Source: Tolypothrix carrinoi HA7290-LM1
GTDB lineage: Bacteria > Cyanobacteriota > Cyanobacteriia > Cyanobacteriales > Nostocaceae
Direction: 5' to 3'
Length of the DNA stretch: 64,000 nt
NCBI GenBank assembly: GCA_019358935.1
Contig: JAHHIK010000007.1
Coordinates: 53,884-117,883, forward strand
The stretch's first letter is position 1. Each line of letters opens with the position of its first letter. The notes under the pieces are model-generated. The model saw only the letters and a program-made list of their open reading frames with translations, had not been told where the DNA came from and did no database searches. A program made the translations under genes and the position numbers. Shown piece after piece: positions 5,172 through 56,793 of the stretch.

Positions 5172-6185
5172 TTTTTCATACTTCTGATGATAATACAACA
5201 TCTATTGAGCTAAATGATGACGTAATCTCGTATTAGTAGAGATTTTGTGTAAAAAAAGTTTGTGCCAATAGAGATAATCATATCCACCGCTTGGGTGGCG
5301 ATTAACTCCTCTCGAATCTCCTTTTCCCCATGTCCCGCATCCGATGCAGAACTCGCCATCACAAACCCGGCTCTACCTCGCTCATTTAAATAACTGTAAA
5401 AATACTGTACTGGAGTTTAGACTAACGCTCTTTTATTACTAAACTTAAAGTATAATTAATTACTAACAGCTTAACCTACCAGGAGTGTTTGATTGGGTTC
5501 AAGAACAGCTACCTCCACCATCACCGTGGTGAAATTAAAGACGATCATGTTAAATTGTGGCAGATGGGAGGATTAGATGAACTACTAGAGCGGGGTTGTC
5601 AACAGGTGCGAGGTTATCTAGTTAATCTTGATGAGAATCACAGCGATCGCCATCTTTGTGATAGCATCAGCAATTCTCAGAGATGATATTGTATTACTCA
5701 CGTTCGCGTCACTACCTTTGACTAAAAGCCATTATCGGCATTTAGAAAAGTCTTCAAGCACAAATTTAGCTAATGGTACGGTGACCTTATGTTCTTAAGA
5801 AAAAAATAATAAATTTAATCCTGGCAATCAAAAAAAGCACTGTAGCATAAGCAACAAAGGAGCTAATCATGTTACCTTCACTGCGCGGTATTGGCAATCT
5901 CTTCAATCATCCTCAGAGCAAATTATCTCAATCGTTGCTTGCTTTCGGCTCTCTTTGCTACTCGACATTTGTCAAGTACGCATTCGTGGATGGCGTATAG
6001 ATATGGGAGTGCAGTAGTTGGCTGCTGCGGTGCTTAGTGCGACTCTAATTCTTCCATTTGTTGCTTTTTCGCTTCGTTTCTGCTCTCAGACTAACTATTC
6101 CCCCAGAACAGCCTCCAATTGGGCGATCGCTTAAGAGTGAATCGGTGCAACCTGTTCTTGAATGGGCGCTAACTGTGCAGCTATC

Positions 6186-6297
6186 TTGACAATAACGTTA
6201 TTGGCAGAGTCTGGTTCCTCTGACTCAGTTTTGACAATAACGTTATTGGCAGAGTCTGGTTTCACCGTTTCACCTTTGACCATTACGTTATTAGCTA
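6186..6297. repeat. Three parS-like palindromes upstream of parA (45-bp period)
   Basis: TTGACAATAACGTTATTGGCA at 6186 and 6231; degenerate TTGACCATTACGTTATTAGCTA at 6276. Same core as the repeats inside parB. Confidence 0.75.
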
Positions 6298-6775
6298 CTT
6301 TGGCATCAACGAGCGAGAAGGCGTTTTAATGTAGCTCAAGATTTGGAGTGCCTGTGCCGGCAAATTTTACTCTAACTGTTTAAGTTTCTCATCAATTCTT
6401 CGCACACTTGACGCGAGTCGGCACACCCTATCACTAGACGCATCAGTTATAGACTACAAAGCGCCTGTTCTTACCAAAGACAATTGCTCGTGACCCGACA
6501 TCTTCACATACAGCTAGCAGCTTTACACTTGAGAAGAAATAATAATACTTCCTACGGAATTTTCCGCGCATTACTATCAGCAAGACGCGTGGAGTGCAAG
6601 CGATCGCTCGCAGTGCTCAAATTGGTAATAAGCGGTACTAAAGAAGCGATCGCGCTTCTTGACTCTGCGGTCAATCGTAAGAACGTCATCAAGTCTTTTT
6701 ATGAGACAAACACAATTTAACAGCACTAATTGAGTTATCTTACCTCTATATGGGGCAGAGCCAATCAACTCACTT

Positions 6776-7531
6776 ATGAGCCGAATTATTGCAATATTTA
6801 ATCAAGCGGGTGGTGTCGCCAAGTCAACTCTTACCCAAAACTTGGGCTATCATTTAGCACAACTCAAGCATCGTGTCCTCCTCATCGACATGGACCCTCA
6901 AGGCTCCTTAACAATCTTTATGGGTTTGGTTCCTAGAGTTTTAAGCAAAACTGTCTATGATGCCATAGTCGAAGAACAACCCCTGTCGATTCATCAGGGA
7001 ATTCACGGCATGGACTTAGCCCCCACCAACACCACCCTTAGTACAGCGGAAATGCTATTGGTCAATGCCGAACTGCGCGACTTCCGTCTCAAAGAAGCTA
7101 TTGAGCCAATCCAGGACGATTACGACTTCATCTTAATAGACTGCCCTCCCAGTCTAGGACTGCTAAGTTACATTTCTCTTGTAGCTGCTACTCATGTCCT
7201 TGTCCCCATCGAAACTCATTTCAAAGCTTTTGAAGGAACAAACGAACTCCTGAAAACCGTCGCCAGGATTCGCACCAAAGTCAACCGTCATCTTGAGATA
7301 GCTGGGTTTGTTCCCACCAAATACGATTCCCGTAATTCCCAGGACACTCGCACCTTGGGAGCAATTACTGAACAACTCTCTCAGATGGGAAAAGTCTTTC
7401 CCCCCATTCCTCGTTCCACTACCTTCGTTGATGCAACAGAAGACCGAATGCCCCTAGCCGTGTATGAGCCAAAGCATCCAGCTGTTGCTGTCCTTAAACA
7501 GTTAGCTAGCAGCATGGAGTCCTTAAAATGA
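6776..7531 (+). CDS. parA: ParA family plasmid partition ATPase
   Basis: 251 aa; NQAGGVAKST Walker A variant, LLIDMDPQG, ILIDCPPSLG; overlaps the parB start (ATGA). Confidence 0.95.
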   Translation: MSRIIAIFNQAGGVAKSTLTQNLGYHLAQLKHRVLLIDMDPQGSLTIFMGLVPRVLSKTVYDAIVEEQPLSIHQGIHGMDLAPTNTTLSTAEMLLVNAELRDFRLKEAIEPIQDDYDFILIDCPPSLGLLSYISLVAATHVLVPIETHFKAFEGTNELLKTVARIRTKVNRHLEIAGFVPTKYDSRNSQDTRTLGAITEQLSQMGKVFPPIPRSTTFVDATEDRMPLAVYEPKHPAVAVLKQLASSMESLK

Positions 7532-8874
7532 TCCGCAAACGCAACCAACCTCTCAAAAGTCAAATTGAAGTGCCTTGGGACCCCAGAAGCGATTTATCTC
7601 CCAACGCTGCCGCCGAGTCCACCCAGAACGTGCCATTAGAGCAGATACGTCTCCCCCAACAGCAACCCCGGCGTTACTTTGACCCTCAAGCTCTAAACGA
7701 GTTAATCGACTCAGTCAAACAGCATGGCATCCTGCAACCCTTATTAGTGCGCCCCATTGATGAGGGTCAATACGAATTAGTGGCAGGGGAACGACGCTAC
7801 CGCGCCGCAAAAGATTGTGGACTTGAAAAAGTTCCCGTCGTTGTCCGCGAGTTGAGTAACGAAGATGCTTTCCAACTCGCACTAATAGAAAACTTGCTTC
7901 GAGAAGACCTCAACCCAGTGGAGTCAACTGAAGGCATCCTACAACTGTTGGCAGTCAGGTTAAAGCGCAATGTTGAGTCAGTTCCAACCTTACTGCATCG
8001 CCTACAACGCGAATACAAAGAAGCCGCCAAAGTTGCCAATAACGTTATTGGCAACTTTGGCGCATCGGATCTAGACACTGCCAATAACGTTATTGGCAAA
8101 AGTGAAGCGGATGATGAACCGGAATCTGCCAATAACGTTATTGGCAAAACTTCAGTATCGGATCAAGACACTGCCAATAACGTTATTGGCAAAACTTCAG
8201 TATCGGATCAAGACACTGCCAATAACGTTATTGGCAAAAGTGAAGCGGAGGAATCAGGCGCTGCCAATAACGTTACTGTCAAAAATGAATCTGATGAGGG
8301 GGAATCTGCCAATAATGTTATTGGCAAAAGTGAAGCAGATCCAGACGCTGCCAATAACGTTATTGTCAAAAATTCAGCATCGGCTCAAGACTCTGCCAAT
8401 AACGTTATTGGCAAAACTGAGTCGGATGGTTCATCACCATCCCCCAACCCGAATTTAAGTGCCAATCCAGACCTGAAGATTATTGAAGAAGTATTTATCG
8501 GCTTGGGGACAATGACCTGGGAGTCCTTTGTCAATAATCGTCTGCCCCTACTAAACCTCCCAGAAGACATCCTCAATGTGCTGCGCTCTGGACAAATTGC
8601 CTACACCAAAGCCAAAGTTATTGCCCAAATCAAAGAGGACTCAACACGGCAAACCGTTTTAGAAAAAGCCGTTGCCAATAGCTGGTCACTATCACAAATT
8701 AAAGAACACATCCAAACCCTATCACCCACTACGCCACCACCAACGCCTCTCAAGTCTCGTCTGGATGCCACAATCCGTCAGGTGAAGAAAGCCCGGATTT
8801 GGGATGACCCCAACAAGCAAACTCGTCTATCAACACTTCTAGCAGAACTGGAAACCCTCCTGGCTGAGGATTAA
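7528..8874 (+). CDS. parB: ParB/Spo0J family partition protein with an internal 9x ANNVIGK repeat insertion
   Basis: QPRRYFD, GILQPLLVR, GERRYRAA (CTP-binding Arg patch), ENLLREDLNPVE; ~130 aa repeat region before ESFVNNRLPLLNLP. Confidence 0.93.
   Translation: MIRKRNQPLKSQIEVPWDPRSDLSPNAAAESTQNVPLEQIRLPQQQPRRYFDPQALNELIDSVKQHGILQPLLVRPIDEGQYELVAGERRYRAAKDCGLEKVPVVVRELSNEDAFQLALIENLLREDLNPVESTEGILQLLAVRLKRNVESVPTLLHRLQREYKEAAKVANNVIGNFGASDLDTANNVIGKSEADDEPESANNVIGKTSVSDQDTANNVIGKTSVSDQDTANNVIGKSEAEESGAANNVTVKNESDEGESANNVIGKSEADPDAANNVIVKNSASAQDSANNVIGKTESDGSSPSPNPNLSANPDLKIIEEVFIGLGTMTWESFVNNRLPLLNLPEDILNVLRSGQIAYTKAKVIAQIKEDSTRQTVLEKAVANSWSLSQIKEHIQTLSPTTPPPTPLKSRLDATIRQVKKARIWDDPNKQTRLSTLLAELETLLAED
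8025..8412. repeat. Array of nine 18-bp palindromes GCCAATAACGTTATTGGC inside parB (candidate parS)
   Basis: Cores start at 8035, 8080, 8128, 8173, 8218, 8263, 8308, 8350 and 8395. Spacings are 45,48,45,45,45,45,42,45, all multiples of 3. Six copies are perfect and three have 1-2 mismatches. Confidence 0.85.
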
Positions 8875-9064
8875 ACGCCACTAAAAACAACACCCATAAT
8901 CCGTAAAACCTTTGCCCTGACTGCATTGGAGAGTGTATAACCAACTACGAACCTGGCTGAACTGGAAACCCTTCTCACTCTCGATTAAACGCCACTAAAA
9001 CCTACGCCTATAATCAGTAAAACCCTTATCATTACTGCATTATAGAATGTATAACAAACCACAA
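8843..9064 (+). repeat. Imperfect ~114-bp tandem duplication of the parB 3' end and downstream DNA
   Basis: GAACTGGAAACCCT...GATTAAACGCCACTAAAA...GTAAAACC...ACTGCATT...TGTATAAC begins at 8845 and again at 8959. Confidence 0.8.
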
Positions 9065-9124
9065 AAGCAAAATTAATAAACTACACTAGCATTTAAATCC
9101 TTTGTTGATCGCCCTTTCCTGACA

Positions 9125-12019
9125 ATGCTAGATAAGCATAAGATTGATCAGCTACTGAACGCCTGGTTGGATTTCTTTTATCTGGAAAACCTTTCCCATG
9201 CTGAAGTTGATGCTGCCGACGATGATAACCAAATCTTGGACAAAGGCATCTCCCTGGTCGGCGACAATCTGCTTATAGAAGAATCTTTATTTAAACAACT
9301 CAAGCAACAATTCCTCGCGCTCAAGAAGAAAGGTAAAAATAATGACTTTCAAATGGCTGTAGCTTTGCCTCAAATTTGGCGGGCAATTGAAGGCAGTCGC
9401 CGATTTTATCCCCTGTTTAAGATTGATATTTCCAGCATCTTTCAAGGCAACTACCGCGCTAAAGGTTGGGATTTGAATTCTTTTGAGTTCCAACCCGTTC
9501 CCCCAAACTTGATGGAATTGTATCAGCTTGACGAAGAAGAAATCGAAGCCTTAGTCATAAAAGAAGGTCTCAAGGTCTTCTTAGAAACCACCTTTAAGCA
9601 ATCTTTCACCAGCCTGCAAGACTTTCTTGACCTTGTTGACTTGCCAGTCAAACCTTACACAACCAAACGCGCTCCCTATCTGCTGCACTTTGACTTCGTT
9701 GCTTACAATTACAATCTCAAAAAAGACTTACAGAAAATATTAGAGCAGCCGCAGTGGGAGTGGGCAGAACCAGGTCATCCCGCTTATGAGTATCTGTTTG
9801 GGCAACCCCAACCACCACACCATGAAGTGCTGTTTCTGGGTGCTTTTCCGACTCATCCCCCCACGGACTCTCAAGCAGTGGCTCTCAAACACACCCAAGA
9901 GAACCCCATCACTGCCGTTATTGGTCCTCCAGGAAATGGCAAGACTACCTTGCTGTTGCACAAACTAGCCCAGCAAGTGGTCAAACGGGCTGTGCAGTTG
10001 GCGCAAACGGGACAAGATGAAAGTAATTTGACCCTAGTTACCAGTACGAACAACCGGGCTGTCTCCAATGTTGAGCAACGATTAGCTCAAGACTTCCCAA
10101 CCAACCGATTTTATTTATCAGGAGGCTCTAAAGAGTTAATCACAAAACTTGTTATACCCAAACTGCAAGCCGCCATTGATTGGTTACAAAACGAGACTTT
10201 TAACGAAACCGAATGGCAGGGAGTGTCTCAAAAACTGTTAGCAGGAGTCAACCAACTGCATTCTCAACTAGAGCTTGACCAAAGACAACTTCAACAACGG
10301 GCAGAGGATGAACAACTGCTTCGAGAGCTTGTTGGGGATATTCAAGCAAAGTCTCTTGAGATAGAAACGCCCCAGATAGAGCAGCAACTTCAAGAGCAGA
10401 TACCATATCCTGAACCCGACTACTCCCAATTCCCCCTAGAAGCCTACCAGATAATCAAGCCGCATTTGGACAATGCCAAGCGATCGCTCCCGCGTGTAGA
10501 CCACTCCCAATTTAATGGTAAAGCTGGTAACTGGTTGGTTCGAGTCCGATATTGGCTCACGAAACTTTGGCAAAAGCTGACCAGAACCACTGAGCGACAC
10601 ATTCTACGAAAGTTGCACAAACAGATTTCAGCTCCGGTTCTGGCTACCCTAGCAACACCCTTTCCCTTTCAAATTCCTCTCACCAGGGAGTCTCTGTCTG
10701 CTGCTTGCTCCTCTGTCGCGTCGCAGCTAGAAGCAGCACACCAGTGGCACACCAAATTTCAGAAATTGGCTGACACTCAAACCCATTTAGACTCGCTCCA
10801 ACGCCGTCAAGATGACCTTGTTGCTCAGAAACAACAAGTTGAAAAACGGTTGGCTGGCTATCCCACTCAAGATTTTTACACTCGCTTCTACACCGAACAG
10901 CACCCGCTCGCTGTGCAATTATTTGAGTGGTCTTGGCAGTATCTGCAACTCCAAGCACTACGACGCAAGCATGAAGTTATTGCCTCCTTAAAGACTTACA
11001 TTAGTGTTTTGAGTGGCGAATGGGAGGCTTTTCGCTCCTTTGGGCGTGACTGGCGAAATATTTACTCTGACCTCAGCTTGCTGTTTCCAGTTATCACTTC
11101 AACCCTGCACTCTGTCCGTAATCTACTGCCCTATCCTGACAGTGGCTGTATTGACCAGTTGATTGTCGATGAAGCCGGGATGATTCCCGTCCATCAGCTA
11201 TTTCCTGCCCTCGTCCGCTGCAAAAAGGCTCTTGTGGTGGGCGACCCCTTGCAGTTGGAGCCAGTCATTAGCTTTAGCAAACAAACTCTAGAACAATATT
11301 GCACGCAGGCTTTTTTCAAACGGGGACTGAGTGAGTCAGACTATGACCGTTACAGTCCGACAGCTTGCGACACAGCAACCGCGTATCACCGAGCAGCAGG
11401 AGCTAGTGGTCAATCGGGAGACTTGGGCAAGGGAATTATTCTTAAAGAACACCACCGCTGTGTTCCACCCATTATTACTTTTTCAGATCGCCTCTGTAAC
11501 TATGGCTTAATCATCAAAACCCCAGCCAAAGCTTCTGCACTTGGTTCCAACCTAATTGCTTACCACGTCGAGGGAAAGTACGAATCCCACACAAACCCTG
11601 AAGAAACGAGAGCCGTCGAAGCGATTATTGAGGAGCTGCTTAAGTATGGTTACTGCATTGACAAGCCAGACAATGAAAAAACAATTGGGGTAATTTCGCC
11701 TTATCGTCGTCAAGCCAACGCCCTTGGGTCTCGTTTATGCTCACGCTGGGAAGATTTTAGCAATAACAGTATTGGGACAATTCACACCTTTCAAGGGGGC
11801 GAGAAATCGGTGATTCTCCTATCTACTCGCCAGTGCCGTAAAGAAGATTCGCTGTGGTTTATTAATCGCCGTCCCAATTTACTGAATGTCGCAGTAAGTC
11901 GTGCCAAAGAATTATTCATTTTGGTGGGGAATTTAGAGCATCTGGAGCAAGGAGGTGGCTACACCAAGATGTTAGTGGAACATATTCGGCAGCACGGAGA
12001 GATTCGGTTGTTACCGTGA
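9125..12019 (+). CDS. Superfamily 1 (DNA2/NAM7/Upf1-like, AAA_11/AAA_12) helicase
   Basis: GPPGNGKTT (I), STNNRAVSN (Ia), VDEAGM (II), VGDPLQLEP (III), EHHRC (IV), GTIHTFQGGEK (V), NVAVSRAK (VI); coiled-coil insertion. Confidence 0.88.
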   Translation: MLDKHKIDQLLNAWLDFFYLENLSHAEVDAADDDNQILDKGISLVGDNLLIEESLFKQLKQQFLALKKKGKNNDFQMAVALPQIWRAIEGSRRFYPLFKIDISSIFQGNYRAKGWDLNSFEFQPVPPNLMELYQLDEEEIEALVIKEGLKVFLETTFKQSFTSLQDFLDLVDLPVKPYTTKRAPYLLHFDFVAYNYNLKKDLQKILEQPQWEWAEPGHPAYEYLFGQPQPPHHEVLFLGAFPTHPPTDSQAVALKHTQENPITAVIGPPGNGKTTLLLHKLAQQVVKRAVQLAQTGQDESNLTLVTSTNNRAVSNVEQRLAQDFPTNRFYLSGGSKELITKLVIPKLQAAIDWLQNETFNETEWQGVSQKLLAGVNQLHSQLELDQRQLQQRAEDEQLLRELVGDIQAKSLEIETPQIEQQLQEQIPYPEPDYSQFPLEAYQIIKPHLDNAKRSLPRVDHSQFNGKAGNWLVRVRYWLTKLWQKLTRTTERHILRKLHKQISAPVLATLATPFPFQIPLTRESLSAACSSVASQLEAAHQWHTKFQKLADTQTHLDSLQRRQDDLVAQKQQVEKRLAGYPTQDFYTRFYTEQHPLAVQLFEWSWQYLQLQALRRKHEVIASLKTYISVLSGEWEAFRSFGRDWRNIYSDLSLLFPVITSTLHSVRNLLPYPDSGCIDQLIVDEAGMIPVHQLFPALVRCKKALVVGDPLQLEPVISFSKQTLEQYCTQAFFKRGLSESDYDRYSPTACDTATAYHRAAGASGQSGDLGKGIILKEHHRCVPPIITFSDRLCNYGLIIKTPAKASALGSNLIAYHVEGKYESHTNPEETRAVEAIIEELLKYGYCIDKPDNEKTIGVISPYRRQANALGSRLCSRWEDFSNNSIGTIHTFQGGEKSVILLSTRQCRKEDSLWFINRRPNLLNVAVSRAKELFILVGNLEHLEQGGGYTKMLVEHIRQHGEIRLLP

Positions 12020-12179
12020 GCGCACTCCGGTTCTGGGAACGTGTGCAGTTAAACAAAGGCTTATCCAAGAAGCGATTAAAATATAATAAATATACTTACT
12101 ATGGAATTTGTAAAATCATTCAGCTTTTACACTCCTCCAAAGCACAATTAAACAGGAGAGATTGACAGAGGACAAGCCG

Positions 12180-13919
12180 ATGGCTTACGCAATCTTCCGC
12201 ATTGAAAAACAAAAAACTTGGGGACAAATTGCTGGCAGTGCTGGTCACGCCCAGCGTACCAGAGAAACACCTAATGCTGACCCCAATCAAGAAAATATCT
12301 GGCTGATTGGCAATTCTACACAGGATTTAGTACAGGTTGTGCGCGATCGCATTGGCGAGCAAACGATTCGTAAAAATGCAGTGCTTTGTGTAGATATGTT
12401 ACTGGCTGCCTCTCCAGAATATTTTCGTCACGACAGTATAGCGGAAGCAGGGGTGTATGAGGATGACAGACTAGAAGCTTGGGTGAAGCTGAACGAGCAG
12501 TGGTTGAGTGAGCGATTTGGCGATCGCATTGTGTCAGCTGTCCTGCACCGAGATGAAGCCACTCCCCATATTCAGGCTCACTTGGTTCCCATTGATGAAA
12601 AAGGCAAACTCAACTGTAATGGCATCTTTGGCTCTCCTAAAATTTTGAGGAAATGGCAAGATGACTATGCCTCGGCCATGCAACCACTTGGTTTAGAACG
12701 GGGGATAAGAGGTAGTAAGGCTACGCATATTGACATCCAGCAATATTACAGCAACATCAACGCTGACCATACGTTGGACATGGACGTGCTGCTCGACAAA
12801 GCCAGAGATAGGGATAGAGCCGAACGTCAGCGTAGGGAGATGGAAGCTACTGCTAAGGCAGCACAAGCGTCAGCTGACCGATTGAGGGAACAAAACCAGC
12901 GGTTGCAATTACAAATTCGCAAGCTCAAGAAGCAACTGGCACAACAATCAGAACAGCTGCAAGACATTCCTCTAGAAGATGTGGCTTATGAACTTGGGTT
13001 GTCAGGCGATAATGATTCGGAGAATCGGTGGGTTGGTGCGGGTATTGCACTGGAAATAAACGGAGCTAAGTTCTCCGACTCTGGGACACAAACCGATGGT
13101 GAGGGTGCGATAGAACTGGTGCAGCACGTTATGGACTATGACTACCCCTCAAGTGTTGCTTGGTTAGCTGATAGATTTGGGGAGACAAAAGCGATCGCTG
13201 CCACCACAGCTAAGTCCCAACGACAAGCAGAGGATATTATTGCTACCAAAAGAGTTCCACAGTTTGAACCACCAGCACCGGATGAAGATAAGTGGTTGGG
13301 GGTGAGGCGCTACCTGGTCGAGACGAAGGGATTAAGAGAAGACTTAGTGGACAAGACGCACTCTGTAGGGCGCATCTATGCTGATGCCCAAGGAAATGCT
13401 GTATTCTTGCAACAAGCTATGGACTACTCTGATGGACAACTTAGGCGGGATCGGGTTACGGGAGCCAGTATGAAGGGAAGTGGCTTTAATGGGTTAGCAC
13501 TCGGTTCAAGTCGAGAATCAGGCTGGTTCGGGGTGGGGCTAGGTCAGGGAGACGTGCAAAGAATTGCCCTAGTAGAGTCTCCTATTGAGGTTTTGTCAAT
13601 AGCTTCGTTGTACCCCAATCCCAAAGTCCCCACTCTCTACTTAGCAACAAATGGAACTGATGCCCTGCCAATGGAGCTAATGCGCTCCTTGATGTCGCGT
13701 GGCGGTGAAATTTTTGTGGCTTATAGTGCTAGTGAGTCGGGGGAAAAGCTGGCTCAACAAGTGATGGAGCAACTGCCAGAAGCAACCAGAGTTAAACCCC
13801 AACTGGGTGAAACTTGGAATGAACAGCTACGAATTAGTCAACAGCAAGTTCGAGAGCAGTCCAATAGACAAACGCAACATAAACAGAAATCTATTGATGG
13901 TGGGGGAATGGAGCTTTAA
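12180..13919 (+). CDS. mobV: MobV (Mob/Pre) family relaxase with C-terminal DUF3991/Toprim-like region
   Basis: MAYAIFRIEK, HAQRTRETPNAD, RKNAVLC, LHRDEATPHIQAHLVP (HxDExxPHxH), GLERG; coiled coil followed by a VESPIE Toprim-like motif. The ATG at 12180 is preferred to the TTG at 12162. Confidence 0.88.
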   Translation: MAYAIFRIEKQKTWGQIAGSAGHAQRTRETPNADPNQENIWLIGNSTQDLVQVVRDRIGEQTIRKNAVLCVDMLLAASPEYFRHDSIAEAGVYEDDRLEAWVKLNEQWLSERFGDRIVSAVLHRDEATPHIQAHLVPIDEKGKLNCNGIFGSPKILRKWQDDYASAMQPLGLERGIRGSKATHIDIQQYYSNINADHTLDMDVLLDKARDRDRAERQRREMEATAKAAQASADRLREQNQRLQLQIRKLKKQLAQQSEQLQDIPLEDVAYELGLSGDNDSENRWVGAGIALEINGAKFSDSGTQTDGEGAIELVQHVMDYDYPSSVAWLADRFGETKAIAATTAKSQRQAEDIIATKRVPQFEPPAPDEDKWLGVRRYLVETKGLREDLVDKTHSVGRIYADAQGNAVFLQQAMDYSDGQLRRDRVTGASMKGSGFNGLALGSSRESGWFGVGLGQGDVQRIALVESPIEVLSIASLYPNPKVPTLYLATNGTDALPMELMRSLMSRGGEIFVAYSASESGEKLAQQVMEQLPEATRVKPQLGETWNEQLRISQQQVREQSNRQTQHKQKSIDGGGMEL

Positions 13920-14216: not shown

Positions 14217-14320
14217 CCATCAAATCACTTCATGCATTTTCATCTGCCAATAACGTTATTGGCAATTATCGCCATCAAATTACTGAATGCATTTTCAGCT
14301 GCCAATAACGTTATTGGCAA
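14217..14320. repeat. Two further perfect parS-like palindromes in a 55-bp direct repeat
   Basis: GCCAATAACGTTATTGGC at 14246-14263 and 14301-14318, each preceded by CCATCAAAT..ATGCATTTTCA.CT. Confidence 0.8.
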
Positions 14321-42804: not shown

Positions 42805-43413
42805 TTAACTGCGTACCAATGGTGTATCCACCAAATGTTCTGCCAGAAACCAAACTTGCGTCTCATTAGTTCGCAGGACTTGGCTCACTAACAAATCGTT
42901 AGTGCCACTATCTTGATTTGCTGCTGTTTTATCGATCGCTACTCTCAATTCCCCAATGATTAACTCGTGCGCTTCCAGTAACCGCGACAACATCACGGGT
43001 ACTTCCTCAACGCCGTTGGGCGGACGCTTAATCTTAGTGACTTCTGCTACATGACGCGGGTCAGTGATTGCCACGCCTCCCAGTGTTTGTACCCGTTCAC
43101 CTAGTGCATCAATTAACTCAATTTGTTCACTGGCGTGTTTGTCGAGCAACAGATGCAGTTGATAAAACGTATGTCCGCGCATCAACCAGTGATGTTTCTT
43201 GTAAAGGTGATAGAGAATAATCGTATCTGCTAAAATTTGATTGACTAAAACACAGCTTTCGCTGCGGGTATTGGGGTTGAGAACAATTGGCAAATCACGA
43301 AGAGTACCATACTGCTGAATTTCATATCCATGTTGATGCAGTAAGGGTTGACTGCCATCGACTTCAGTGATACCTGTATTTTGAGTTGGCACGAGCGCAT
43401 CTCCTAGAGTCAA
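42805..43413 (-). CDS. dps: Dps family DNA-protection/ferritin-like protein
   Basis: LYKKHHW.MRG.TFYQLHLLLDKH, D.LGERVQTLGG, D.GTNDLL, WFLAEHL. Start uncertain. Confidence 0.88.
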   Translation of the reverse strand: MTLGDALVPTQNTGITEVDGSQPLLHQHGYEIQQYGTLRDLPIVLNPNTRSESCVLVNQILADTIILYHLYKKHHWLMRGHTFYQLHLLLDKHASEQIELIDALGERVQTLGGVAITDPRHVAEVTKIKRPPNGVEEVPVMLSRLLEAHELIIGELRVAIDKTAANQDSGTNDLLVSQVLRTNETQVWFLAEHLVDTPLVRS

Positions 43414-43469
43414 TAATTAAGTCTGTTCTATTTGTATGTACCGAGAAACTGCTTCTCTTAGGATTGGGA

Positions 43470-44279
43470 TTACTTCACAGCAGTGCTTGCTGCTTCAATC
43501 ACTTTGACAACCTCTTTTGGATGAGAGATAAAAGGAACATGACTGGAGTTAACTTCGGTTGTCTTAGCACTAATCCGTTTAGCCATAAATCGTTGAAGTT
43601 CAGGGTTGATGGCGCGATCGCTTTGAGTCACGAGAAACCAGGAAGGAATTGTTTTCCAGGCGATTTCATTCAGTGATTGCTCAAACGCTGCGCTGGCGAT
43701 CGGCTTTTGGGTTGCTGCCATCACTCGCGCCTCAGCCTTTGATACGTCTTGGGCAAAAAATTCGTGAAACTTCCCGCGATCGATATAGAGAAAGTTTGCA
43801 GCATCAGACACGATCGCCGTACTAATCGGAGGTGCTGCGTACTTTTTATTCAAATCACTCGTCTTTTCACCGACATCTGGTGCGAAAGCATTAACATAAA
43901 CCAGAGCTTTCACCTGTGGATTGCCAGCCCCCGCACCCGTGATCACATTTCCACCATAGGAATGTCCGACCAAAACAACGGAACCTTTTTGATTATTAAT
44001 CACCCGCTTCGTCGTTGCCACATCATCAGCAAGCGAGGTGAGCGGAATCTGCACAGCGGTCACTCTGTAGCCATCCTGCTCCAACAATGGAATGACGTGT
44101 TGCCATGATGTACCGTCAGCATAAGCCCCATGAACGAGAACGATCGCAGGTTTAGAGTTGGACGCTTGAGGTAATTCCCTGGAGGTGGCTGGTGTTGGAT
44201 GCATTGATATTCCAACGACAACACTTAATGCAAATAACCACAGCAACAATTTTTGAACTTTTTTCCATCTAAAAACCAT
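43470..44279 (-). CDS. Secreted alpha/beta hydrolase
   Basis: Signal peptide; VLVHGAYADG, GHSYGG, D.AINP, SSHVP. Confidence 0.88.
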   Translation of the reverse strand: MVFRWKKVQKLLLWLFALSVVVGISMHPTPATSRELPQASNSKPAIVLVHGAYADGTSWQHVIPLLEQDGYRVTAVQIPLTSLADDVATTKRVINNQKGSVVLVGHSYGGNVITGAGAGNPQVKALVYVNAFAPDVGEKTSDLNKKYAAPPISTAIVSDAANFLYIDRGKFHEFFAQDVSKAEARVMAATQKPIASAAFEQSLNEIAWKTIPSWFLVTQSDRAINPELQRFMAKRISAKTTEVNSSHVPFISHPKEVVKVIEAASTAVK

Positions 44280-44391
44280 CAGATCGCCTCTGTATTCTTG
44301 CTAAATTGCTGAAATCTCTGGTTCTTGTCTCCGTATAGAAATTATGAAATACTCCCCGCTGAAATACTTGTTGGGATAAGAATCAAAAACC

Positions 44392-44949
44392 TTAATCATT
44401 TGCAGCAACAATGGCTGCCATTATCTGCTCAACAGTCCAGCAATCAAGATAGCGAATTCCATTAATAAACAAAGCGGGCGCAGCCTCCACTCCACTTTGC
44501 AGTCCACCTTCGATATCCGCATTGATACGATCAACATACGCTCCCCTGGATAAATCCTGCAAAAATTGAGAAATATCAAGTCCTAAACGATTGGCGTACT
44601 CTACTAGATAGCCATTCTCTAACTCTTGTTGATGAATGAACAATATTTCATGCATTTGCCAAAACTGCCCTTGAGCCGCTGCGGCTTCCGCAGCTTCCGC
44701 TGCTCGTTGAGCATGTGGATGAATCTGTACCTGAGGAAAATGACGGAAGATAAAACCTAAATTGTTTTCTCCAAACGAAACCTTCAATTGCTGTTGAGCA
44801 ACTTTAATCAATCGATAGACGTTGGCACTTTGAAAACATTCATAATCTCCATACATGACGAATACTACAGCAGCATTCAGTACACCTTGGATACGATCCT
44901 GGGTTGAAGGCAGAACGAATAGAGAACGATTATCACGGTCGTAAGTCAT
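44392..44949 (-). CDS. DsbA/thioredoxin-fold protein (second Cys of CxxC replaced: ECFQS)
   Basis: YGDYECFQS, FRHFP, HAQRAAEAAEAA..QGQFWQMH, G...P..FING. Confidence 0.82.
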   Translation of the reverse strand: MTYDRDNRSLFVLPSTQDRIQGVLNAAVVFVMYGDYECFQSANVYRLIKVAQQQLKVSFGENNLGFIFRHFPQVQIHPHAQRAAEAAEAAAAQGQFWQMHEILFIHQQELENGYLVEYANRLGLDISQFLQDLSRGAYVDRINADIEGGLQSGVEAAPALFINGIRYLDCWTVEQIMAAIVAAND

Positions 44950-53283: not shown

Positions 53284-56200
53284 TTACAAACTCAACCACG
53301 TATAAAACTGTGGCATCATTTGTTCTAATATACGTAGTTCCGCAGATGCAATTTTTTCCAGCAGTAGCACAGCACACCACCGACGATCCTCACTCCAACG
53401 TTGGAGGATATCTTTAATGGCATCAACCCCATGCTTAATGCCAGAGCGCAGTTGTTGGACACAATCTCTAATTGGTGTAGAATCGCCATCTTCGGGGTCA
53501 AAAATCTCAAAAACAGCATTTTCATTTTCGGTATCCACCCCCTCCCTTATGGGTTCCCCTATAGAATTAGGCGGGGGGGTGGATACGGGGGTATTGGGAG
53601 GTGCAATCCCATACAGTAACTGCAATCCAGCCTGAAATCGTCGTTGATCTTCTTCGGCTTGACGCGCTCGTTCTTCTTTTTGTGTACGTTTATTTTCTCG
53701 ATGCTTAATTACAGCTTGAGCAAAATCCAATTCCTCTTGCTTAAGTCCGTGGTATTTAACTTGTTTACCCCTCGGACCCACTTTATGGTCGTCCAGTTTT
53801 AATCCCAATTGGTCAAGCAAAGTCCCCAATAGCCATATTGGTTTACATTTCTTGGGAACCGTAAACCCTAAAATCGCCTTAACATGAGACGCACAAGAAG
53901 AGGCTATTTCGGTCATCCTCACCAAATCAGGGTCATTCGCTGTCACCTCAACACCCGCTACTAGGCGTTTGAGAACATCATGCAATCCCAAATTAAACCT
54001 AGCCAGCCAAGAAGCCGAATAATTCCCCCAGTCCATACATAACGGGAAGTGCAAACGCTCCTGACGGTCTTTGTCTGCCACAATTGTTGGTGGGCTTGGG
54101 TATTCATCACCAGTATTTGGGTCAACAATTGTACCATCTGGCTCAGATAAAATTGCCTCCAAATCGGCGATCGCTTTAATTAATTTCCCACTGTTATCTT
54201 TTTGTACCAGTGTTGAAGTTACCTCCATCCCGTAAGCATCTTTGATACGGAATTTTTCGCACTCGAAAACTTCTTCGGGTGACAAATAATCTTTACTAGT
54301 ACGTTGGCGATACTCAGTAGCCGAAATCTCCTTGGAAGAAGCAACCGCAGCATAATACGCAGCGTCTAAGGCAATGCCAGCATTTTTTAGTTGCTGTTGT
54401 GCAAGATAATTTTCCTCAGCACCCACTGAGATAATTACGTTACCCATCTCCGTTAGCAGGTTGCGTAAATCAGCCCGCAAATTGTTGATGGATTGGTGTC
54501 GAGAAGCCATTATTTGACAGTACGCATCTAATGCCCAGTCTTTTTCAGCACCTCTTCGTCCTGTTTCACGGTCAATCCTGATTAGGAAAGCCGTCATCTC
54601 GTTGGTTTGCAGCAACCGCTCCTTAATTTTACTGGCATTGGTATCTTTATAGCCAAAGGGCGGACGCGGAGCTACCCAAACGTGAATCGGGACGTTGGGA
54701 CGATAACGCCAGAGTTGTTGGGCGCATTCGGTAGCCGTTTGAGAAACCCCGTGAAAAACGCCAAAAACAGCGTCGAAATGATATTCAGGTATATCCACCC
54801 CAGTTCCCAAGCTAGGGGACGCTAAAAGGGCATCTAGGCTCTTTACAGAGTTAGTTATGTCCTTGATGAAAGCGACATTTTCTTCACTGCCAGAATTTTC
54901 TGAGTGGATCGCCCAAATTCGTAAGGGTTGTTTTATATCTGACCTTTTTTTGTCATCTATCTTTTGGGGTAATTGTGAGGGATCACTACCTGAAGTATTT
55001 TTGTCATCTATCTTTTGGGGTAATTGTGAGGGATCACTACCTGAAGTATTTTTGTCATCTATCTTTTGGGGTAATTGTGAGGGATAGTCAGAATTATTGT
55101 CATTAAATGGCGGTGGTTGCGAAATACTGTCTGCATTGCTAGCCTCCACAACAACGCGCATAGAGAGCGACTTTTCAAGTTTCTTAATAAACCGCTTGGA
55201 GTCCGAAGGCACCATAATTTTCTCACCCCTCATCAGCGCTGCTGAAATTTGGGCTACAAGGGCGGAGGAATTATCTCCTTCGTACCAGTAAATTAGGCGA
55301 TCGCCATTTTTCCACTCGTTTTTGATAATAAACGGTTTTTCTTCTGGTGGACGCATTGCCCGGAAGAAGTCCACCGTCACCTCGTCCATATGCGCGTCGG
55401 CAATTACAACCAAGGGCGCATTATACACGATATATTCCAGAACTTCTAAAATCGATGCCCGATGTTCTTTACAGGTTTTACTGTGCAGCAGGTGAGTTAG
55501 GTACTGGCAAGCTTCATCGATAAACACGCAACCGTAGGTGAGGGAATCGGTGCAAAGCTTGTGCAAGCTGTCGATGGTGATGCTGAGGGCAGTAGCCTTG
55601 GCTAAACCCGTATAACCCAAATCCGAGTACATCTCGGTTTTGAGACGATTAGCCAGGTTTTTCAGCAAGTTAACCCGATGCCCGTTGTTGAGGAACCGCG
55701 CTTCGGGATGAGAGTCACGCCATTTTGAGAGCAACTCGGTTTTGCCGGTTCCCATATCGCTGTCTAATACTACCAGTCCTGATTCTGGTAATTCAACTGA
55801 AGAAGATAAGTACTTGACATTTACCCGAACGTGTGGTTTGTATTTGCTACTTAGTCCTCTGTGGCTGAGGTAGAACGATCGCTGATAATCTGTGAGGCTT
55901 TTTGCATCGTCAACGATCGCAGTCAGTAGGGCGCTAGCATCGTCACCACGGGCTACTACGAAGTCATCGACCCCTTTCTCCATTCCGGGGAGTAAAGCCA
56001 CCTCACAGGCGCTCCCAGCAGCTTCTATTGCCTTACCTGTACGCAGGGTGGCTTGGAAGACCGACCAACGGGTTTTGGGGTTGGTTTCGTGGTCGAAGAG
56101 GATAATAAACTTGCGTCCCTTTTGTGCTAAAGGCAGCAAGTCGGGGTGCAGGCGTTCGTCGAAGTCTTTTTTACCAACTCGTCCGTTCCAAATACCGGGG

Positions 56201-56793
56201 AGAGCGATCGCTGCAAACCCAAGACTTAACAAACAGGCTGCTTTCTTTTCGCCTTCGCAAAGGATTATGGGTATTTCCGGGTGACGAATAACCCACTCCC
56301 AAAATATTAAGAGCGGATGTAGCCTATCAGTAAGGCGCGACAAGAGGGGAGAATTATAGCACTTGATATTATACCGCTTTTGAACTAAATCCCAAATGCA
56401 GTCGGGAATATCGAAGTAGGTAACGCGGTTGGGGGTTTTGGGTGGTGACTCGTATTTGACGAGTTTGCCTTTTTCTGCATTAATCCGGGGGTTAGTGGGC
56501 TTAAAGCGCCCCCATTCCATCGGTTGCCAGTTGTTTTGGGGGTCGAGTCCGGAAATCCACAATCCACCTAATTCGGCGTGTTGGTACTGCTTTAAGAAGC
56601 TATCGGTGACTCGACCTGCGTTTTTGCGAGGTATGGATTCGGAGATAAACAGGTACGAGTAGACGATCGCGCTCTCGATGTGGACGAAGTTGCGTTCGAT
56701 AAGCGCGTGGTGGATGGCACTACCGACAGCGAGTTCGTGGTACTCGGCGACTGTAAGGTTGTTGGGGAATGGGGAGAGAAATTCGTCGTTCAT
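53284..56793 (-). CDS. Plasmid replication protein, CyRepA1 family (DUF3854 primase-like plus helicase-like domain)
   Basis: KYESPPK, LCEGEKKAACLL, ALPGIWNG, KGVDDF (DUF3854/Toprim-like); SDMGTGKT Walker A; FIDEACQ; SPSLGTGVDI. Confidence 0.88.
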   Translation of the reverse strand: MNDEFLSPFPNNLTVAEYHELAVGSAIHHALIERNFVHIESAIVYSYLFISESIPRKNAGRVTDSFLKQYQHAELGGLWISGLDPQNNWQPMEWGRFKPTNPRINAEKGKLVKYESPPKTPNRVTYFDIPDCIWDLVQKRYNIKCYNSPLLSRLTDRLHPLLIFWEWVIRHPEIPIILCEGEKKAACLLSLGFAAIALPGIWNGRVGKKDFDERLHPDLLPLAQKGRKFIILFDHETNPKTRWSVFQATLRTGKAIEAAGSACEVALLPGMEKGVDDFVVARGDDASALLTAIVDDAKSLTDYQRSFYLSHRGLSSKYKPHVRVNVKYLSSSVELPESGLVVLDSDMGTGKTELLSKWRDSHPEARFLNNGHRVNLLKNLANRLKTEMYSDLGYTGLAKATALSITIDSLHKLCTDSLTYGCVFIDEACQYLTHLLHSKTCKEHRASILEVLEYIVYNAPLVVIADAHMDEVTVDFFRAMRPPEEKPFIIKNEWKNGDRLIYWYEGDNSSALVAQISAALMRGEKIMVPSDSKRFIKKLEKSLSMRVVVEASNADSISQPPPFNDNNSDYPSQLPQKIDDKNTSGSDPSQLPQKIDDKNTSGSDPSQLPQKIDDKKRSDIKQPLRIWAIHSENSGSEENVAFIKDITNSVKSLDALLASPSLGTGVDIPEYHFDAVFGVFHGVSQTATECAQQLWRYRPNVPIHVWVAPRPPFGYKDTNASKIKERLLQTNEMTAFLIRIDRETGRRGAEKDWALDAYCQIMASRHQSINNLRADLRNLLTEMGNVIISVGAEENYLAQQQLKNAGIALDAAYYAAVASSKEISATEYRQRTSKDYLSPEEVFECEKFRIKDAYGMEVTSTLVQKDNSGKLIKAIADLEAILSEPDGTIVDPNTGDEYPSPPTIVADKDRQERLHFPLCMDWGNYSASWLARFNLGLHDVLKRLVAGVEVTANDPDLVRMTEIASSCASHVKAILGFTVPKKCKPIWLLGTLLDQLGLKLDDHKVGPRGKQVKYHGLKQEELDFAQAVIKHRENKRTQKEERARQAEEDQRRFQAGLQLLYGIAPPNTPVSTPPPNSIGEPIREGVDTENENAVFEIFDPEDGDSTPIRDCVQQLRSGIKHGVDAIKDILQRWSEDRRWCAVLLLEKIASAELRILEQMMPQFYTWLSL
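54947..55085. repeat. 51-bp tandem repeat (~2.7 copies) in the rep gene
   Basis: GTCATCTATCTTTTGGGGTAATTGTGAGGGAT at 54952, 55003 and 55054; encodes PSQLPQKIDDKNTSGSD. Confidence 0.9.

Follow-up and report, generated by a model that had tools for sequence, protein, structure and literature searches.

The parB gene on a plasmid contig of the cyanobacterium Tolypothrix carrinoi HA7290-LM1 contains nine in-frame copies of a short palindrome which, to judge from comparative sequence analysis, is very likely the binding site of the ParB protein encoded by the same gene, and which probably serves as the parS centromere. The window, by which we mean the whole stretch of DNA analysed, comprises 64,000 nucleotides (positions 53,884 to 117,883 of contig JAHHIK010000007.1), and coordinates refer to it unless stated otherwise.

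A plasmid-borne parAB operon

The operon consists of parA (6776..7531, plus strand), an open reading frame for a Walker-type partition ATPase of 251 aa (Pfam AAA_31, 5e-49), and parB (7528..8874, plus strand; 448 aa), whose start parA overlaps. The parB product matches Pfam ParB_N and HTH_ParB, scores above the cut-off of TIGR00180 and matches the ParB/Noc fold, with a CTPase domain (aa 32-123) followed by a DNA-binding domain with a clade-specific insert and by C-terminal helices. The CTPase motifs are present as Q46, G87-E88-R89-R90 and E121-N122-R125, with L124 replacing the usual Q, and their positions agree with the entries for the M. xanthus substitutions Q52A and E93A. Among the homologues described below, QPR is found in 195/198 and GERR in 194/198. 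The contig is a plasmid, since its ends overlap by 876 bp and it carries a CyRepA1-family replication gene (53284..56793, minus strand; NF042913, 332.7 bits against a cut-off of 200) and a Mob_Pre relaxase gene (12162..13919, plus strand; open reading frame, Pfam), and homologues of this ParB also reside on complete plasmids. An adjoining Walker-type ParA, a CTPase domain, the ParB/Noc helix-turn-helix (HTH) fold and a plasmid location together correspond to a type I ParABS system, for which a ParB-specific palindrome of 14-20 bp on the same replicon is also found, at the level of sequence. The protein falls outside the chromosomal ParB/Spo0J class, having E/R/N/T where that class has R173/T179/A184/G201-type residues, and outside the Noc class (TIGR04285, 151 bits against a cut-off of 315); the only canonical parS in the host genome is one site with a single mismatch, on another contig.

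parB contains an in-frame array of palindromes

Scanning the window for GCCAATAACGTTATTGGC with up to three mismatches gave 13 matches where 0.04 were expected, and 0/100 shuffled sequences reached 13. Nine of these lie in parB. Copy 1 (8025-8062, core 8035-8052) is a perfect 38-bp palindrome and occupies the same position as the site of single-copy homologues. Copies 2 (8080-8097), 3 (8128-8145), 4 (8173-8190), 5 (8218-8235) and 9 (8395-8412) are also perfect, giving six perfect copies out of nine for a unit of 18-20 bp. The other three have one or two mismatches: copy 6 (8263-8280) has two, both non-synonymous (ANNVTV), copy 7 (8308-8325) has a single synonymous one in its centre, and copy 8 (8350-8367) has one that is non-synonymous (ANNVIV). 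Successive copies are spaced by 45, 48, 45, 45, 45, 45, 42 and 45 bp, so that the frame is kept throughout. The match scan and the reading frame thus bear out the first-pass annotation, which had described nine in-frame palindromes at 42/45/48-bp spacing; its translation of the repeat as ANNVIGK applies to six copies and fails for three, which read ANNVIGN, ANNVTVK and ANNVIVK. It had also contrasted near-invariant palindrome codons with divergent linkers, and third codon positions agree: inside the palindrome, five of six are 100% identical between copies and the sixth is 78% identical, whereas five of the seven linker third positions examined range from 31 to 58%, the other two being at 78% and 100%.

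The array is not an assembly artefact, because relatives carry 5-10 copies, the nearest named ones being contigs of Tolypothrix, Scytonema, Spirirestis and Brasilonema. As a side observation, two relatives (L002 and L003) are identical parB genes, each with 10 copies, that face opposite ways on a single 105-kb scaffold.

The palindrome occupies a fixed position across a ParB clade

Homologues were collected from genomes, plasmids and metagenomes in two sets. In the first, where 14 of 122 sequences were dropped (score below 250 or no anchor), 84 of the 108 kept carried a perfect 16-bp palindrome in the corresponding loop and 99/108 a palindrome centred on AACGTT. From the second, 25 of 106 were dropped (11 duplicates, 14 without an anchor), and 62 of the remaining 81 had a perfect site, including eight new versions. 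After at least eight sequences lacking the second anchor had been removed, the combined set held 198 ParBs: 149 with a perfect AACGTT-centred 16-mer, 31 with one unpaired position, 10 with two or three, and 8 with none. By comparison, such a palindrome occurs at 3 of 8,640 control codon boundaries. There are 32 distinct perfect versions of the site, all with the AACGTT core, and the sequences are related, so these counts exaggerate independence. The centre of the site lies 41-44 codons past the ENLxRxDL motif in 118/127 single-copy genes; the parB of Nostoc PCC 7120 pCC7120epsilon is one single-copy member of the clade. Across 99 sites, base pairing is 0.87-1.0 out to positions +-10, drops to 0.54 at +-11 and is about 0.2-0.3 further out. 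Symmetry thus holds to about +-10 and is at chance level beyond +-11, which gives a site of 20-22 bp for the clade.

Arrays with 2-10 copies, all in frame, are present in 22/149 ParBs, with five different sites and at least four changes on the tree, and contigs of related strains differ within the array by a net 42, 87 or 270 bases. These in-frame differences in copy number, together with the disorder of the region in structure models (below), agree with the earlier suggestion of a tolerant, expandable loop. Clade members were found in 162/401 genomes of the order searched and almost none in a phage collection and viral contigs. The ParB of pSYSG (Synechocystis 6803) was missed by the clade anchors and is without an ACGT-centred perfect 16-mer. 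Among 101 array copies the commonest central change is CG to TG or CA (8 and 5 copies), as expected from cytosine deamination, and these changes could be a hint that the site is methylated.

Palindromes of this kind could instead function as RNA hairpins or as cruciforms, or could be symmetric simply through template-switch mutation and slippage, unread by any protein. The array does fold strongly (z -15.4), the arms at times extend to 13-19 bp, copy 1 has a terminator-like score on the minus strand, and template switching may help both arms to change jointly. However, conservation is highest in the four central bases, where a hairpin would have its free loop, and G.U-type mismatches are not favoured, being rarer (14) than the mirror A.C type (31) among 91. 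On these two grounds we reject the RNA hairpin. This group of explanations, which would also leave the covariation with helix residues and the cognate non-coding copies described below unexplained, is highly improbable overall.

The site is encoded in a loop inside the DNA-binding domain

In the first-pass annotation the array was placed in a loop between the CTPase and DNA-binding regions, whereas the fold match and profile alignment put it inside the DNA-binding domain. All 105/105 residues of the Noc DNA-binding domain align to residues 125-263 of a single-copy homologue model (Z 11.8, rmsd 2.5), and in the profile alignment the TQEEV part of Spo0J precedes the insert and the VARRVG part follows it; the insert, of about 34 residues in the single-copy homologue, therefore splits the HTH region. 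In the model of this homologue, a loop (162-172) between two helices contains the peptide encoded by the site, with pLDDT below 50 at 167-170, and in the model of the window ParB residues 175-305 are disordered; both models are predictions without DNA. Before the array lies a clade-specific helix (aa 149-165, 7972..8022, plus strand; helix 149-177 in the model) that includes Q160 (8005-8007), and after it comes the predicted recognition helix (aa 331-343, WESFVNNRLPLLN; 8518..8556, plus strand), with residues 335-337 at 8530-8538.

Residues of the DNA-binding domain covary with bases of the site

Residues 335-337 covary with positions -6, -5 and -4 of the site, and residue 160 with the outer bases -8 and -7. 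The strongest signal is that of residue 337, which for base -4 outranks every other alignment column (253 in total; z 14.7, 43/43 representatives) and predicts this base of the site version in 61/62 held-out genes: N goes with T, H with C, and S, T, A or K with A. Residues 335, 336 and 160 track the site more weakly. Among 94 representatives, R336 occurs with G at -5 in 8/9 cases, K160 with GG at -8/-7 in 10/10, and R335 with G at -6 in 18/19, 15 further G's at -6 being paired with other residues. No residue accounts well for base -6 (0.27 of entropy), and an identical recognition helix can occur with CCA or CCC. A tree-aware comparison of residue 337 with base -4 yielded six supported independent pairs, of which five changed in the same direction, none in the opposite direction and one was unchanged (p 0.0625, not significant); for the other residue-base pairs the tree offered too few contrasts. 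In the alignment with Spo0J, residue 337 falls on the Asn of the recognition helix, and, with numbering matched via the spacing from a Gly, it is the predicted counterpart of N178 of Caulobacter ParB, given as DNA-contacting in PMC7383237.

The rule also holds for ParBs whose gene lacks a perfect site, which make up the most stringent test of whether ParB reads the palindrome. Eight of 49 such ParBs have a perfect site outside the gene, and 8/8 fit the rule for residue 337, including two cases of the rare H-C pairing; the other 41/49 have no perfect outside site in the flanks searched. Two of the five that have lost the site peptide carry K160, and both have GG at -8/-7. One of these ParBs, with R160, has C at -8, contrary to the trend. 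On plasmid Cy782204, where the in-gene copy is without its right arm, there are three perfect outside copies of the expected version.

Could the encoded peptide be what is selected, or could the loop be self-reading and help ParB to recognise its own coding DNA? The loop does come directly after the helix that holds residue 160, base -6 is ill explained by residues outside the loop, and the N-V of the peptide is nearly constant. Nevertheless, mismatches are spread evenly across the two arms (27 left and 36 right in 101 array copies), Asn is replaced in N-to-I and N-to-Y changes, and the five ParBs without a recognisable peptide keep the predicted site outside the gene; on these grounds we reject a self-reading peptide as the main explanation. 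With pLDDT under 50 in the loop, and with the conserved positions being the synonymous ones, a role for the peptide is in our view very unlikely. The apparent target of selection is the DNA, as the annotation had proposed, with the peptide a presumed passenger: synonymous positions are conserved, and members that lack the peptide retain their outside site.

Copies outside parB and the role of the site

A site cognate to the ParB occurs outside the gene for 34/149 ParBs, compared with 3/4,197 non-cognate pairs in the same flanks; for 115/149, no outside copy was found within flanks of 0.5-43 kb. The outside copies keep the family-specific 20-22 bp while their flanks are unrelated. The alignment of homologues thus supports the pattern that the annotation had suggested looking for, in which each family has its own palindrome at one shared codon position and further copies elsewhere on the replicon. 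The host genome encodes four ParBs with four different sites, each perfect on its own contig, and of 16 genome-wide matches to the window 18-mer (up to two mismatches), 13 are on the parB contig.

In the window, two perfect intergenic sites (14246..14318; starts 14246 and 14301, 55 bp apart) lie between the Mob relaxase gene and an SNF2 helicase gene, with flanks unlike those of the array; the pair is also present in L002 and L004. Another element (6186..6304, minus strand), about 480-590 bp before parA and found also in L001 and L004, repeats the beginning of the array in inverted, non-coding form, spanning 110-125 bp with 76-82% identity, linkers included. It holds sites at 6188 and 6233 with one mismatch each, plus a decayed third copy. 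Since the linkers were duplicated too, the 6188 and 6233 copies do not have an independent origin. Of the two non-coding occurrences cited in the annotation, that at 14246-14318 is perfect and in unrelated flanks, and that at 6188-6297 belongs to the duplicate of the array.

A ParB-bound palindrome need not be a centromere. As in KorB systems, its main role could be that of an operator or roadblock restricting parAB expression, with segregation left to another site or system. A cognate copy is located 45-91 bp before parA for 12/149 ParBs (within the 300 bp searched), the copies in parB stand in the path of transcription, and some plasmids have additional partition genes (ParM/StbA, ParG) and so a possible second system. 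Yet on 12 complete plasmids, searched with up to one mismatch, in-gene copies are alone on six; five have one extra copy and one has outside copies only. Distant intergenic arrays also look centromere-like: L106 has a non-coding array of 12 cognate copies with a 211-bp period, 1.9-4.2 kb after the parB start, and L137 has four non-coding cognate copies at a 103-bp period before parA. The CTPase motifs are moreover retained, and operator and centromere roles are compatible. We therefore consider a mainly regulatory site unlikely and parS the likeliest role, because of the intact CTPase motifs, the parA partner and the known biology of ParABS systems (as far as covered by the accessible part of PMC9178275). 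The copies before parA suggest that there is autoregulation as well. A KorB-type global repressor would have operators at several promoters of the replicon; outside copies number 0-1 on 11/12 of the complete plasmids and three on one, beside the copies before parA for 12/149 ParBs. Two further loci (L090, L094) have cognate non-coding pairs about 150 bp apart, and L107 also has a non-coding array.

If the palindrome is a parS, one ParB dimer would read the two half-sites through its recognition helices, with residue 337 at -4, R336 at G -5 and R335 at G -6, and the clade-specific helix would add reading of -8/-7 by residue 160. CTP binding would then close the ParB clamp, ParB would slide off the site, and ParA would move the complex. 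Duplication of units in multiples of three would add loading sites and leave the protein unbroken, since the peptide would be a passenger in a disordered loop, and copies directly before parA would add autoregulation.

Diversification of the site

In single-copy genes, a stretch of about 40 codons holds both the site and part of its reading head, so that one short recombination event could swap lock and key together. We compared a module, defined as the segment around the site minus the site itself and residues 160 and 335-337, with the rest of the protein. The module tree requires 46 site changes and the backbone tree 52 (minimum 31), and the nearest neighbour has the same site for 57/81 ParBs by module and for 41/81 by the rest of the protein. 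In one pair (L154/L163), with 93% identical backbones and the same recognition helix, bases -8/-7 and residue 160 differ, and DNA identity drops to 65% solely over helix and site, about 120 bp. Exchange of short cassettes may account for the module data, with modest support; convergence of DNA-reading residues could supply part of the signal, and fast local evolution may also do so. The annotation had suggested that site and protein specificity would be inherited together: their proximity stands, and of their moving together there are only signs. Tentatively, and at a little less than even confidence, we suggest a lock-and-key cassette in which a swap of about 120 bp gives a new, orthogonal specificity in one step, with over 30 pairs, a readable code and enlargement of the centromere by in-frame duplication.

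Incompatibility between plasmids is weakened as a driver of site diversity, because co-resident ParBs do not avoid shared sites: 3/58 co-resident pairs share one, against 2.7 expected by chance, a comparison of low power with 32 versions. Avoidance of shared sites driven by incompatibility is accordingly unsupported. Genome G059 has three co-resident ParBs with one site, its ParBs on several contigs (L074, L075, L078, L102) having a site in common; shared specificity is thus tolerated.

Relation to known partition systems

The sopC site of the F plasmid is a non-coding array of palindromic sites near the partition operon, and a parS-type site lies within the spo0J gene of Bacillus. Multiple palindromic parS sites near or inside the partition operon are also a feature of repABC plasmids (PMC9040568, accessible part); like sopC these arrays are non-coding, whereas the clade array is translated as part of ParB. 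The earlier view that a parS inside parB would be unusual was overstated. The megaplasmid of Thermus thermophilus has a 14-bp palindromic parS inside parBm that is specifically bound by ParBm (ParABSm; PMC4409726, PMC10085754), and the accessible parts of these reports concern one site in one species and describe no in-frame array, clade-wide position or code. On Streptomyces SCP1, both ParABS1 and ParABS2 have CTPase ParBs, with parS inside each parB and copies around the operon, as shown by ChIP-seq and BLI (bioRxiv 10.64898/2025.12.10.693275). Those sites, in contrast, are of 13 and 19 bp with three copies each, and the accessible text describes no repeated peptide array. This preprint surveys plasmid partition systems, and its supplements could bear on novelty.

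Chromosomal ParB-parS and Noc-NBS resemble the cyanobacterial clade in their CTPase and HTH fold, their 16-bp palindrome and a specificity set by few helix residues (PMC7383237, accessible part), and the parS consensus also has a central ACGT (PMC4409726). They differ in keeping their specificity within the family, where the clade has at least 32 versions, and in the clade a 34-residue insert splits the HTH and symmetry extends to 20-22 bp. The N178 position, conserved in chromosomal ParB/Noc according to PMC7383237, is the main switch here, and the positions that vary are different. Our literature search, in the main texts of openly accessible papers, returned no report of the site, its clade-wide position, the code or the translated arrays, and no parS reported for a cyanobacterial plasmid; the accessible text of PMC6328274 names the parB of pANL and gives no site, and that of PMC12704722 has nothing on the palindrome site. 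What appears to be new, from the sequence comparisons, is thus the clade-wide fixed position, the readable code and the in-frame expansion, parS inside parB being already known.

For a large share of cyanobacterial plasmids, the centromere would be predictable straight from the parB gene. With 32 or more candidate pairs of ParB and site, related by a residue-to-base code, the clade forms a natural library, and it is a setting in which to test how protein-DNA specificity can diversify without a broken intermediate. Such pairs might be used as parts in stable shuttle vectors and as multi-colour locus labels. Two cautions follow for genetic work: knocking out parB in these plasmids would also delete the site in cis, and recoded or extra copies of parB would titrate ParB.

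Other features of the replicon and its relatives

Reads from one RNA run with a small share reached from parA no further than the start of parB, a scan for promoters and terminators gave chance-level results only, and the upstream region 5900-6400 had no match among plasmids. The same ORF start occurs twice in the contig (G000:C7:323-1789 and 43095-44561), in addition to the overlapping ends; two plasmids of about 43 and 74 kb, both of them equipped with a Rep, a Mob and a ParA, may have been joined at a repeat to give this contig. At 8839-9065 are two 113-bp direct repeats, 79% identical, which repeat the parB end together with the DNA beyond it.

Two paralogous 144-aa ORFs on other contigs of the host (G000:C79:39663, L409, and G000:C102:1008) each have one perfect 18-mer, in frame as ANNVIG. 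These genes are 80% identical and adjoin integrase genes, and a distant homologue (L410) is without the peptide; the 18-mer in them may be a chance occurrence or a borrowed site. In L065 and L113, truncated parB fragments near an intact parB keep the site, as the window does at 6186-6304, and remnants of parB may persist as extra sites. Finally, a superfamily-1 helicase gene (AAA_11/AAA_12) closely follows parB in the window (9125-12019) and in L018, L020, L079 and L404, and in L079 a cognate site lies within this helicase gene.
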